Source: an uncultured archaeon (GTDB taxonomy: Archaea; Asgardarchaeota; Thorarchaeia; Thorarchaeales; Thorarchaeaceae). Taken from it: DNA of 37,986 nucleotides. Below the pieces are notes generated by a model, which had not been told where the DNA came from, ran no database searches, and worked only from the letters and a program-made list of their open reading frames with translations. The stretch covers positions 1-37,986 of the forward strand of contig CAZLEV010000026.1 of NCBI GenBank assembly GCA_964558645.1. Direction: 5' to 3'. The translations under genes and the position numbers were made by a program. Below, in pieces: positions 18,120-37,986 of this stretch (positions within the stretch are counted from its first letter, which is position 1; each line of letters opens with the position of its first letter).

Positions 18120-18358
18120 CTTCCTTCTGATGAATGGTATCACGAGTCAGCCAAGGGATTGAGTGTGTTTTGTTGAGATCATGCTTTCACGTATTTTGTG
18201 TTTGTTCGAGCACGGTCTTGTTGAGAAACGACCGTCTTGAAAACTCTTGAAGAGTTTGACCTGGAATTCTGGAATCTTGAAAACGCATTGACTTCCTAGT
18301 CATTTTGTCAGATATGTGTAAGATTTCCTCCTTGCTGACATGTAGTCTTGAACACTCT

Positions 18359-18409
18359 CAGGGGAGGGATGGAACGCAGAAGTCTCTTCCAGGTGATGTT
18401 CACTCACCA
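18359..18409 (+). repeat. Detached copy of the tnpB element 3' end / omegaRNA 3' scaffold
   Basis: 48/51 nt identical to the reverse complement of 35554-35604. Confidence 0.85.
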
Positions 18410-18498
18410 AACTGTAAGAAACAGATTATCTAGAAATCGGATTGTTGAAATGGAGGAGATGTGCTTCACCGGGTACAATGTTGTTCCAGAGGTGAGTA

Positions 18499-35300: not shown

Positions 35301-35403
35301 GGGCGCGTAGTCTAGAGGATAAGGCGCTTGCCTTCGGTGGGCCTTCTTTCGATGGTCCGAAGTAAGCAAGATGTCCCAGGTTCGAATCCTGGCGCGCCCG
35401 CCA
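35301..35403 (+). tRNA. tRNA-Arg(TCG) with a 27-nt intron at 37/38 (35338-35364)
   Basis: GGGCGCG/CGCGCCC-G-CCA acceptor stem. Canonical BHB: CTTC:GAAG helix, GG|T and TA|A bulges, GGGCC:GGTCC outer helix. Confidence 0.95.
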
Positions 35404-35553
35404 CTCATGTCCAACTTCTAAAAGATGTAGTGCATTTTGTTGTTTGTACGTCAGCTTCTCGTTTCCTCACATTCTAGTTTCTCAAAAACGAGAAACTTCT
35501 TCTAGACTCTAGATGGAGACCATACTAGACTATAATCCATCTCTCGCGTCTTA

Positions 35554-35700
35554 TGGTGAGTGAACGTCACCTGCAAGAGACTTCTGCGTTCCACCCCTCC
35601 CCTGCCAGTGTCACCACTCCCAGACACCCAAAGGATCTCTGAGTCAGCAGGGGCATTGTCCGCGCTCATGGGGATGGTATCCCTCCCACGGACCGGGTTT
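35554..35700 (-). ncRNA. Predicted omegaRNA/reRNA at the tnpB 3' end (5' limit uncertain)
   Basis: Position downstream of/overlapping tnpB. CCCCUGC/GCAGGGG stem and GAAG-hairpin-GUUCAC end. Second copy at 18359-18409. Confidence 0.6.
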
Positions 35701-37403
35701 CCTCCTCCTGTGCCTGTGCCGGGGCATCACTCCCGACCACAGCGAGGTCTTCCGCAGTACTTTCCACGGCGGGATCATCATCACCCATCTCGACCCCGTC
35801 GCCGAAGTCAAGAAGGCTCGATTGAGCATGGTGAACAGCCGCGGACTCTCCGGGACCTGATGTAGCCCCTTGTTTGGAGAGTAAGGACCTCCGTCGAGAA
35901 GAAGAGCTCTTCCCTCGGGCCTTCGGCCGCGAGCTCCCTGCAACTGCACTGGCCCACTTGCCTAGTCCTCTCACGTCATGCAGTGATGAGGTGAGCGTGA
36001 TATACCGTCCGGCGATGTTGATGGCTCCGTTCCTGTCAGCGTTGCAGCGGTTACCACAGGTCGGGCAGACAAAGTAGTTCTGTTTCGGCCTGTGGCCCCT
36101 CTGACCACATTTCCAGCAGATGATGGATGTCCAGCTCTCAGGAACAGCACGAAACCGGGAACCCTTTCCAGAAACATTCCAGCCAAGCTGTGCAAGCTGG
36201 AACTTGAGGCTCTCAGTGATGCGTGAGAAGGCCCAGGAGTGTATCATGGCCCGGAACTTCCGCCCCTTGTAGTTGCCACGTCTGGCCGCCGCCCGAATAT
36301 GCTTGAGCCTGCCCATAACCACATGAAGATTGTATCTCTCCGCCAACTCCGAGATGTAGTCAACCAGTTGTCGCACCAGTACCCGGTCGTACTCGCGGGT
36401 CACATTCGCTCTCTTCGAACTGATTAGCCGTAGCCGTCGGACCACCTTGTCGGTGGGTTGTCGGTTGTTCTGTCTGGTGTGATACTCGTGCTGCAGGTCT
36501 GCAACAAGCCCATCCAGCTGCTTGATCCGCAGGACCTTCTCAGTCTGGACGAAGTATCTGGTTTCCCGAACCTTCTCGGGAGTGACAAGAGCTGTGCATG
36601 CAGCCTTCTTGATACCCAGATCAATGCCGAGTACTGCAGGGGGTAGCTCTTTCCTCGGAGACTTGAGAACGTTGACCCTGACCGCAATAGTCACCCACCA
36701 TTTCTGCTGTCTGTCGGTGAATATCTGCAGCGCCTTCACCTCACCTCTCCCGAGCTGATTGAGATGGAAGGGAGACATCTTCAGGGGAATCAACAGTCGG
36801 TCGTGGATATTTCGTCCTTCGGGCGCAGAGTCTAGAGAGTCCCGCAGGTCAAGCCACCAGCGCGCAACCGTGGTATCGTGTTCTACCAGTTTGAACTCCC
36901 GCTTGAAGGCCCATCTAGGGATTCTCCGGGAAGAGACTATCCTGCAGGGGCGGGATGTCTTTCGCCCTTTCCTGCGGCGGCGCAGTTCAAGGTAACCCTC
37001 GTAGAGCTCCACAGCGGTCTTTCTGCACTCAGCAAGCTCGTTCTGAGACGCTCGGGGGTATCGTGCCTTCAGGTCATGAGGAACCGTCAGCCTCTTGCTG
37101 CAGCCCTTGCTGACCTTTATGGCCGTCAGTGTGAGCTCATCCAGTTTCCCGTCGTGGATTCGATTCTTATCGCGACCTATGAGCAGTTCATCTTCGTGTT
37201 CTTCAATCACTCCGAGAAAGGCCCGGATCACGCGGGTGTCACGTCCAACTATTTGCCGTAAGCGCTGTCTAGTCTTCTCTGTCATGACCTCCCATTTGAC
37301 AGGAACCTTGACCGAGATTGTGACACCATCAGACCGAGCCATCGCCTTCGCCTTTGAGGTATTTAAGTTTCTGACCTGTTTCAGTCAGGTGAGTTCACTC
37401 CCC
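35555..37403 (-). mobile_element. Non-autonomous tnpB-only element bounded by imperfect inverted repeats
   Basis: GGTGAGTGAACGTCACCTG (35555-35573) versus CAGGTGA-GTTCACTCCCC (37386-37403). Visibly GC-richer than its flanks. No transposase between the ends. Confidence 0.7.
35666..37342 (-). CDS. tnpB: TnpB-family RNA-guided nuclease with rearranged RuvC-II
   Basis: RuvC-I VLGIDLG. RuvC-II VVMGRL (Gly for Glu) with alternative Glu in VPESWTS. CWKC/CPTC Zn finger. RuvC-III NADRNGAINI. Confidence 0.92.
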   Translation of the reverse strand: MARSDGVTISVKVPVKWEVMTEKTRQRLRQIVGRDTRVIRAFLGVIEEHEDELLIGRDKNRIHDGKLDELTLTAIKVSKGCSKRLTVPHDLKARYPRASQNELAECRKTAVELYEGYLELRRRRKGRKTSRPCRIVSSRRIPRWAFKREFKLVEHDTTVARWWLDLRDSLDSAPEGRNIHDRLLIPLKMSPFHLNQLGRGEVKALQIFTDRQQKWWVTIAVRVNVLKSPRKELPPAVLGIDLGIKKAACTALVTPEKVRETRYFVQTEKVLRIKQLDGLVADLQHEYHTRQNNRQPTDKVVRRLRLISSKRANVTREYDRVLVRQLVDYISELAERYNLHVVMGRLKHIRAAARRGNYKGRKFRAMIHSWAFSRITESLKFQLAQLGWNVSGKGSRFRAVPESWTSIICWKCGQRGHRPKQNYFVCPTCGNRCNADRNGAINIAGRYITLTSSLHDVRGLGKWASAVAGSSRPKARGKSSSSRRRSLLSKQGATSGPGESAAVHHAQSSLLDFGDGVEMGDDDPAVESTAEDLAVVGSDAPAQAQEEETRSVGGIPSP

Positions 37404-37793
37404 CTTTTGTGAGAACAGAGGTTATTGAACTCGTAGAATTGCATAGTATGCAAGTATTTAAGTTCATTAAACAAATCTCTAAATAAAGTATGGAAGCCAA
37501 AGACGCTGTCTAGTGACCATTTTGGAGCATAGATCCGTTTATACACTATCGAGTAGAGATGGGTGGGTTCCCACGTTTTTTCTTTGGGTTTCCAATAGGG
37601 GCATCACGTGTTTCTCACAACCACGTCGTTACTGTCTAGAAGGCCACTCAACACCGAATTCTCCATCGATACAGGTATTTCGTTCAGGTCTTGGGCGTCA
37701 CGACAAAGGGACCCAGCCTCGCAATCTAGTCCCTCTCTCACACCATCTTCAGGAGTACAAAGACTGTGTGCAAGGCTACTCGGAGGAGCAACT

Positions 37794-37897
37794 ATGTGTA
37801 CGGGTGTACAATACATGAGGTCTAAGTGGAGAAACATCTGTACGGGGGTCCAATATGCGAAACCCGGCGGAGGAAGGATCTGTACGGGGGTACAGTA
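37794..37897. repeat. Three 20-bp palindromic repeats at an exact 42-bp period with 22-bp variable spacers
   Basis: ATGTGTACGGGTGTACAATA (37794), ATCTGTACGGGGGTCCAATA (37836) and ATCTGTACGGGGGTACAGTA (37878). Confidence 0.85.
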
Positions 37898-37986
37898 GCG
37901 ATATGACTGGAGAAGAGATGGTTGTTCGTCTGCAGTGCTTTCCCGCGGCTGCGAAGACTATGCCTCAGCCAGCTTGCGCATCTTTT

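Follow-up and report, generated by a model that had tools for sequence, protein, structure and literature searches.

TnpB nucleases in which another residue has taken the place of the catalytic RuvC-II glutamate, and an alternative glutamate stands elsewhere in the domain, have been described from prokaryotes and eukaryotes: a Glu-to-Pro/Gly substitution combined with an alternative Glu is shared by Fanzors and TnpBs from several clades, termed 'TnpB2' (Jiang/Saito et al. 2023, PMC10530073), and rearranged RuvC-II sites, with relocation of the Glu from strand beta4 to strand beta5, make up two major clades and eight large branches, the largest of which has Gly and some of which occur almost solely in archaea (Altae-Tran et al. 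2023, PMC10691335). The present analysis concerns a gene of this kind on a 37,986-nucleotide (nt) stretch of DNA from an uncultured Thorarchaeales archaeon (hereafter the window), which is the whole of contig CAZLEV010000026.1 (C26) in a genome of 3.63 Mb, 37 contigs and 92.8% completeness. The gene, an open reading frame (ORF) of 558 amino acids (aa) (P0001, 35666..37342, minus strand), is, with a probability of about 85%, a real alternative-Glu TnpB, complete and probably active as an omegaRNA-guided endonuclease, that belongs to the aCas1-associated Asgard family and has no special link to Fanzors.

Biochemical precedent for such a site comes from TvTnpB of the archaeon Thermoplasma volcanium, which cuts DNA with the transposon-adjacent motif (TAM) NTGAC and without collateral activity, and from the E467A mutant of ApmFanzor2, in which cleavage is lost (PMC10530073). 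The alternative Glu has been defined as lying six residues ahead of the zinc finger, and pro-Fanzors as cyanobacterial proteins that combine DPG in RuvC-I with the alternative Glu and are accompanied by an IS607 TnpA (Yoon et al. 2023, PMC10711439). Among prokaryotic TnpBs, the rearranged groups include RIIr-3 and RIIr-5, the NADxN form of RuvC-III represents the 'derived' type, and in the aCas1-linked TnpBs of Asgard archaea the sequence GTTCACTCA follows a 'hypervariable region' downstream of tnpB that has been suggested as a possible guide site (PMC10691335).

The rearranged RuvC site and its conservation

The tnpB product comprises a WED/REC lobe, a RuvC domain with zinc finger and a 100-residue tail of translated omegaRNA sequence, and the mapping of its motifs to codons by script reproduces exactly the ORF, the Gly and Glu codons and the intact pair of Asp residues reported in the initial annotation. 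All on the minus strand, the RuvC-I aspartate D241 (36620..36622) lies in GIDLG, a D-hydrophobic-G rather than a DPG motif; G344 in VVMGRL (36311..36313) occupies the canonical RuvC-II Glu position; the alternative Glu, E402 in VPESWTS (36137..36139), follows 58 residues later in the spacing E-x6-C409; C409, C412, C426 and C429 form a C4 zinc finger of two CxxC pairs (36056..36118); and the RuvC-III aspartate D436 lies in NADRNGA (36035..36037). The arrangement follows the D-nonP-G pattern of Yoon et al., with 158 residues from G243 to E402 and then E-x6-CxxC-x13-CxxC-x6-D.

At the level of domains, the product matches the Pfam TNB domain PF07282 (Cas12f1-like) at 2.8e-12, above cut-off. An AlphaFold2 (AF2) model with a 50-sequence alignment as input (predicted local distance difference test, pLDDT, 80.9; predicted template modelling score, pTM, 0.75) has the bilobed WED/REC and RuvC fold of the TnpB/Cas12f type, and its best Foldseek matches are Cas12f and TnpB complexes at E values of 1e-16 to 1e-11 (AsCas12f 2e-16, ISFba1 TnpB 7e-13, ISDra2 TnpB 9e-12). 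In the model, G344 closes strand 338-345, E402 closes strand 397-401, which adjoins the strand bearing D241, and D436 opens helix 435-450. The RuvC site would thereby consist of D241 on beta1, E402 at the end of beta5 and D436, with Gly344 where most TnpBs and Cas12s carry the beta4 Glu.

A search of 5.8 billion proteins returned more than 500 homologues, most with about 65% identity along their full length and, where named, from Thorarchaeota or Promethearchaeia; nearly all of 80 related loci likewise come from metagenome-assembled genomes (MAGs) of Thorarchaeota/Promethearchaeota, with several copies per genome, which bears out the Asgard host proposed in the initial annotation and points to a multi-copy lineage almost confined to Thorarchaeota. 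D241, G344, E402, D436 and the four cysteines are invariant across 21 close homologues, all close relatives have D-L/F-G at RuvC-I, and in the 50-sequence alignment, which reaches down to 22% identity, D241, E402, T405, S406, the cysteines and D436 are invariant and G344 is kept in at least 90%. The alternative Glu is therefore conserved in close and diverse relatives alike. Purifying selection at the protein level on the body of the protein (residues 1-458) follows from a ratio of 2.21 between the entropy at third codon positions and that at first and second positions in 58 coding sequences.

The depth of the rearrangement was gauged by an exhaustive HMMER scan of representatives clustered at 50% identity, which gave 948 relatives; among the best 150, the site was scored in 55 full-length sequences, and 53 of these carry the Gly together with Glu-x6-CxxC, one having the canonical Glu and one being unaligned at that place. 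Together with the 50-sequence alignment, this count implies that the rearranged site is ancestral for the broad surrounding TnpB clade as judged from its sequences, and no local change of the present gene. The initial annotation had taken Gly plus alternative Glu as the mark of Fanzors and their closest prokaryotic relatives; the combination is indeed present in Fanzors, but it also marks large prokaryotic clades (PMC10691335, PMC10530073).

The omegaRNA, the Cas1-like partner and mobility

Downstream of the nuclease body, an omegaRNA scaffold (35532..35968, minus strand) extends from codon 459, at GGACTAGG, through the stop codon to ...GGATTAT, as delimited by repeat boundaries, entropy and covariation. 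In DNA comparison within this genome, omegaRNA copies all begin at 35968 and end at 35554 with 77-91% identity, and alignment extends the unit past 35554 to ...GATTAT at about 35532. RNAalifold on 54 sequences gives 74 consensus pairs, 48 of them with double compensatory changes (for example UA:31/CG:21, AU:27/GC:25 and CG:17/UG:17/UA:15); in Rfam the omegaRNA region has no match, only the neighbouring tRNA being found. A shortened variant, in which 118 nt (window 35790-35909) are replaced by 29 other bases, is found at C2:385932-386277 (C denoting contigs of this genome and L related loci) and on contigs of three metagenome runs, and thus represents a second RNA form.

The right end is formed by a terminal hairpin (35540..35580, minus strand) with the conserved GTTCACTCA (35557-35565) in and beside its loop. 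About 100 nt past the stop codon, this motif is matched exactly in about two thirds of the loci and in 46 loci when one mismatch is counted; its core lies in a loop closed by variable but complementary stems in 45 of 46 family sequences, so that the 'hypervariable region' of the literature amounts to the 5' arm of a hairpin that covaries. Past the hairpin follows AGGT(C/T)A(T/G), GGATTAT in the window, often continued by C-N-R-G-A-A, where similarity ends. By analogy with the TnpBs of IS605 and IS607, the guide is most likely the 16-20 nt after the omegaRNA end, from 35531 to about 35512 (putative 20-nt guide at 35512..35531, minus strand). In the proposed mechanism, the omegaRNA would probably be cut out of the tnpB transcript and end in the hairpin with its conserved GUUCAC loop, followed by a guide of about 20 nt, and the TnpB-omegaRNA complex would cleave matching DNA beside a TAM.

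A divergent ORF of 1400-1900 aa lies about 250 bp upstream of tnpB on the opposite strand in 41 of about 60 related loci (for example L020:332-5749 and L075:1142-5740, both on the minus strand, plus 39 other loci), and this genome holds six such giant genes (C2:428289-430787, C10:127604-132070, C14:56342-60592, C27:23571-27947, C30:4114-8388 and C6:129569-133780), mutually 25-34% identical at the protein level, of which those on C2 and C10 stand head-to-head with TnpB paralogues. The giant protein has no match in Pfam, NCBIfam, PADLOC or PDB sequences and was identified by fold comparison, in which an AF2 model of its first 560 residues (pLDDT 80.3) was set against solved structures: for residues 1-235 all 12 of the top 12 matches are Cas1 catalytic domains, a casposase included (Z 9.2-12.5), and residues 253-545 resemble PD-(D/E)xK nucleases of the Cas4, DinG, RecB and AddAB type (Z 5-7.3). 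The layout thus starts with a catalytic domain of the Cas1 type that lacks the customary N-terminal beta domain, followed by a Cas4-like nuclease and about 1000 fast-evolving residues, with invariant E102, H167 and D177 and a GR-DLVLF...E-K-T-K motif in the alignment. This Cas1-like protein is presumed to act as the integrase of the element. The Cas1 homologues of the aCas1-TnpB elements of Asgard archaea are reportedly those of Makarova et al. (2020, CRISPR J). The present tnpB very probably belongs to that published family, which has already been described computationally.

Aloposons, the giant-protein transposons of Asgard archaea, were considered and set aside, their proteins measuring 3000-6000 aa and the paper mentioning neither TnpB nor Cas1 (PMC8813620). 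The only Cas1 detectable by Pfam in this genome belongs to an ordinary CRISPR-cas locus (C4:101600-118400, L017) in which a long 37-nt repeat array accompanies cas1, cas2, cas4-like and cas3-like ORFs and which is unlinked to tnpB.

In the window, the partner gene probably lies just beyond the contig end. The 644-nt stretch upstream of tnpB is 72-76% similar to the corresponding region of L018, the closest relative, in which the giant ORF begins 1242 nt upstream of tnpB, and to the end of the giant-gene contig C30; the similarity of 37509-37928 to C30:9132-9511 (76-94%) and to the tnpB upstream region of L018 (72%) points to a spacer that this subclade has conserved between tnpB and the Cas1-like gene. 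The last 55 bases of the window (37932-37986) match the first 55 of C20 exactly, a k-mer overlap left by the assembler, and C20 is without a Cas1-like gene; a 4195-nt contig in metagenome run X2 reaches about 2 kb past the window end.

Several points weigh against the reading of a complete, active member of the aCas1-associated family. The NCBIfam model guided_TnpB matches at 3.3e-25 and 89.2 bits, below its cut-off of 100; the placement of E402 in the active site is read from predicted strand topology, and that of the guide from analogy; the Cas1-like partner is not visible in the window, where the contig ends 644 nt upstream of tnpB; and membership in Cas1H-Asgard-1/-2 is suggested by three shared features, not by the authors' tree. 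As to mobility, the 92.8%-complete genome gave no hit to a Y1 TnpA (PF01797) or to an IS607-type serine recombinase (PF00239), and metagenome contigs of four runs show no empty site or excision joint. Apart from the giant gene, no neighbour recurs in more than 4 of 60 loci, minor recurrent ORFs not having been scanned against Pfam, so that a rare TnpA is possible.

These observations bear on the first alternative, namely that the nuclease, although active, has given up its part in transposon homing and is instead a resident host or defence-type enzyme supplied with guides in trans by stand-alone omegaRNA genes, which is considered unlikely. In its favour, in addition to the want of hits to known transposases in the genome, the four full-length or near full-length TnpB paralogues of the genome are only 44-56% identical, implying no recent full-length transposition, and certain neighbours are shared across genomes: four MAGs have tRNA-Gly(TCC) directly against the right end, and the genes downstream of the window's element recur downstream in L031, L048 and L059. 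Further support comes from units that carry omegaRNA sequence and no tnpB. About ten places in the genome match TnpB residues 455-558 only, with stops in frame (C9:22654-23085, C4:5412-5847, C15:57549-57949, C5:237331-237762, C2:161683-162069, C4:65152-65557, C2:385932-386277 and C14:8-316, and partially C16:26268-26451 and C8:1-177). The full-length solo units, of 415-437 nt, begin exactly at GGACTAGG, are placed after ordinary genes and fall into two subfamilies by their upstream sequence, both carrying a TATA-like, A/T-rich box some 22 nt ahead of the start, and one of them also three GTGTCAGA repeats further upstream; as such, they resemble promoter-driven guide-RNA genes rather than decayed elements. 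A further set made up of some six miniature units that resemble the omegaRNA and measure about 100 nt (window 18352-18429, plus strand; C6:184929-185006, C13:104069-104146, C2:325292-325369, C17:54862-54939 and C2:404510-404567) keeps only the last long stem and the GTTCAC hairpin, is 91-95% identical to 35554-35611, has a common upstream region of its own and ends throughout at GATTAT.

Against a resident enzyme, however, stand the several to at least nine copies per genome in other MAGs and their mostly unrelated flanks (47 of 54 singletons), the published view of the family as mobile elements (PMC10691335) and the fact that stand-alone omegaRNAs acting in trans are known for OMEGA systems, including ordinary mobile ones. 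Moreover, neither flanks nor guides have a second genomic match: comparison of the 30 nt past each unit end with this genome gave only weak or repeat-derived similarities. Over 35463-35994 the metagenome depth increases by as much as tenfold, which is expected of a multi-copy unit, and loose ends at 35554, 35611 and 35968 coincide with the repeat boundaries. A tRNA lies within 600 nt of the tnpB stop in 17 of 56 related loci; in the window, an intron-containing tRNA-Arg(TCG) (35301-35403, plus strand) converges on the element about 130 nt from its right end, and the end of the C2 paralogue in this genome runs into tRNA-like 3' sequence.

The same solo units allow a more far-reaching, speculative and rather improbable proposal, according to which the omegaRNA would be an independent gene family of Thorarchaeota, its roughly ten full-length and six miniature copies with apparent promoters of their own feeding varied guides in trans to a few TnpB paralogues, and the Cas1/Cas4-like protein would install or move the units, giving an array-less, CRISPR-like multi-guide system. 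If true, such a trans-guide module would stand midway from OMEGA transposons to type V CRISPR-Cas and would not be a simple selfish transposon.

The reading-frame tail and the element ends

The initial annotation had suspected that the low-complexity tail of the protein overlaps the omegaRNA, and disorder from residue 473, nucleotide-level constraint from residue 459 and the covarying RNA agree with it. In residues 459-558 the entropy ratio falls to 1.18, compared with 2.21 in the body, the third position (0.82) being nearly as constrained as the first and second (0.70 and 0.69); this collapse of third-position freedom indicates that the tail is constrained as nucleotides, not as protein. The last 100 codons are thus the 5' two thirds of an omegaRNA of about 435 nt, and residues 459-558 form no protein domain.

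The alternative, that the 100-residue tail is a functional protein segment, for instance a disordered acidic C-terminus that binds a partner, appears doubtful. It could draw on the frame, which about 50 of the 58 tnpB-linked copies keep open across the RNA gene (555-564 aa) while stand-alone copies, 57-83% identical in the amino acids of the tail frame, have 1-4 stops, and on the conserved C-terminal ...GGIPS; yet besides the third-position constraint, the 48 covarying RNA pairs account for the conservation, the AF2 model is disordered over residues 473-558 at a pLDDT of 28-46, and some homologues stop about 15 residues early. That the tnpB frame is kept open over 35666-35968 in most of the 58 relatives, though the tail is predicted to be disordered, is an observation in its own right, and something may select for translation through the omegaRNA region.

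At the left end, a motif composed of GAGTGAAC and TCACCTGAC (37384..37400, minus strand), 57 nt ahead of the ATG, is an imperfect inverted copy of the right-end stretch 35558-35573. It is found at about -57 in 47 of 61 loci, and the family consensus at both ends is GAGTGAAC-(N)-TCAACTG, the 8-mer being almost confined to those two places in each locus. The motif is followed by a CTGAC-loop-GTCAG hairpin and by the TATA-like box CTTAAATA (37360..37367, minus strand), about 20 nt ahead of the ATG, which has a conserved TTTATA/TTTAAA counterpart at the same place in paralogous loci and is the probable tnpB promoter, giving a near-leaderless mRNA. Further upstream, three repeats with a TGTAC-N4-GTACA core stand at 42-bp spacing in the window (37778-37897), and a similar palindrome, TGTACGAGTACA, occurs about 100 nt ahead of tnpB in other loci.

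The likeness of the two ends is also what a dead or binding-only, TldR-like TnpB might call for, in which the RNA would repress or mark DNA such as the promoter of its own gene or of the Cas1-like gene: the canonical Glu is missing, the right-end CAGGTGAC-GTTCACTC is the inverted complement of the motif 57 nt before the ATG, just ahead of the TATA-like box, and left and right ends are slightly more similar within a locus than across loci (6.31 vs 6.00, reached in 1 of 5000 permutations). This covariation is detectable but tiny, however; the complementary stretch measures about 15 nt, usually with one extra base inside, and its arms take part in pairing inside the RNA hairpin as well. Dead derivatives lose their catalytic residues (PMC10691335), whereas D241, E402 and D436 are invariant over hundreds of millions of years' worth of family divergence, and TvTnpB and Fanzor2 are active with this site (PMC10530073). 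A TldR-like protein is therefore very unlikely, and an active nuclease, as initially proposed, is far likelier given a triad invariant throughout the family and a body under purifying selection. The notion of a guide directed at the element's own promoter was likewise set aside on account of the very small locus-specific covariation, and the two ends appear to be protein-binding inverted repeats rather than a guide and its target.

Extremely unlikely is a pro-Fanzor-like protein, closely related or ancestral to eukaryotic Fanzors and bearing on their origin, for which the alternative Glu six residues ahead of the zinc finger, the Asgard host and the inverted-repeat-like ends, as in many Fanzor-carrying elements, could be cited, but against which stand DLG in place of the near-universal DPG of Fanzors and pro-Fanzors, the absence of an IS607 TnpA hit in the genome and of a recurring IS607 TnpA in 60 loci, the non-diagnostic nature of a Glu shared by 53 of 55 representatives and by large published clades, and the weak match to Fanzor2 (9b0l) both in the profile search of PDB sequences (1.8e-4, compared with 6e-13 for a TnpB and 1e-11 for Cas12f) and in Foldseek (rank 28). 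The relevance to Fanzor origins claimed in the initial annotation is accordingly not supported, the motif being DLG, the genome giving no serine recombinase hit and the protein standing closer to Cas12f and TnpB than to Fanzor2.

Comparison with known systems

With Fanzor2 and the cyanobacterial pro-Fanzors (PMC10711439; 9b0l, PMC11832414), the present protein shares the Glu six residues before CxxC and the TnpB fold, and it differs in its DLG motif, the lack of an IS607 TnpA, its archaeal host and its weak similarity (E 1.8e-4). Previous work has documented the shifted Glu as a common, active form of TnpB, and it offers no new handle on the origin of Fanzors. ISDra2 TnpB of the IS200/IS605 group is likewise an RNA-guided RuvC nuclease, its omegaRNA sharing sequence with the 3' end of the ORF and extending as far as the right end, with stand-alone omegaRNAs as well; in contrast to the protein described here, it has the canonical Glu, a DRDxN motif and a length of about 400 aa, and the ends of ISDra2 are same-strand subterminal hairpins moved by a Y1 TnpA, for which no hit was obtained here.

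The TnpB2 TnpBs, RIIr-5 and related branches (PMC10530073, PMC10691335), likewise have Gly at RuvC-II, the alternative Glu, intact Asp residues, NADxN and an omegaRNA at the right end. TvTnpB is carried by an IS605 element that includes a Y1 TnpA, and it recognises the TAM NTGAC, whereas the genome studied here gave no Y1 TnpA hit, the omegaRNA is far longer (about 435 nt), the ends resemble inverted repeats and, in the family, a Cas1-like protein is the partner. The family could serve as a source of compact nucleases, possibly without collateral activity, since other alternative-Glu enzymes lack it.

The closest counterpart is the aCas1-TnpB group of Asgard archaea (Cas1H-Asgard-1/-2, PMC10691335), with which the locus has in common the Asgard host, a diverged Cas1 homologue that is paired with tnpB in its relatives, repeats that flank the locus and GTTCACTCA past a variable stretch downstream of tnpB; the differences are that the Cas1-like gene is cut off here by the contig end and that the 'hypervariable region' is the 5' arm of a covarying hairpin, with no obvious spacer. 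The link of TnpB to a Cas1/Cas4-like protein bears on how CRISPR adaptation modules met the ancestors of Cas12, and the stand-alone guide genes and this partner are the more novel possibilities that the locus raises. To the published description the locus adds anatomy: exact limits of the omegaRNA, a structure backed by covariation, the hairpin-arm reading of the variable region, inverted-repeat-like ends and many solo guide-RNA genes with promoter-like boxes.

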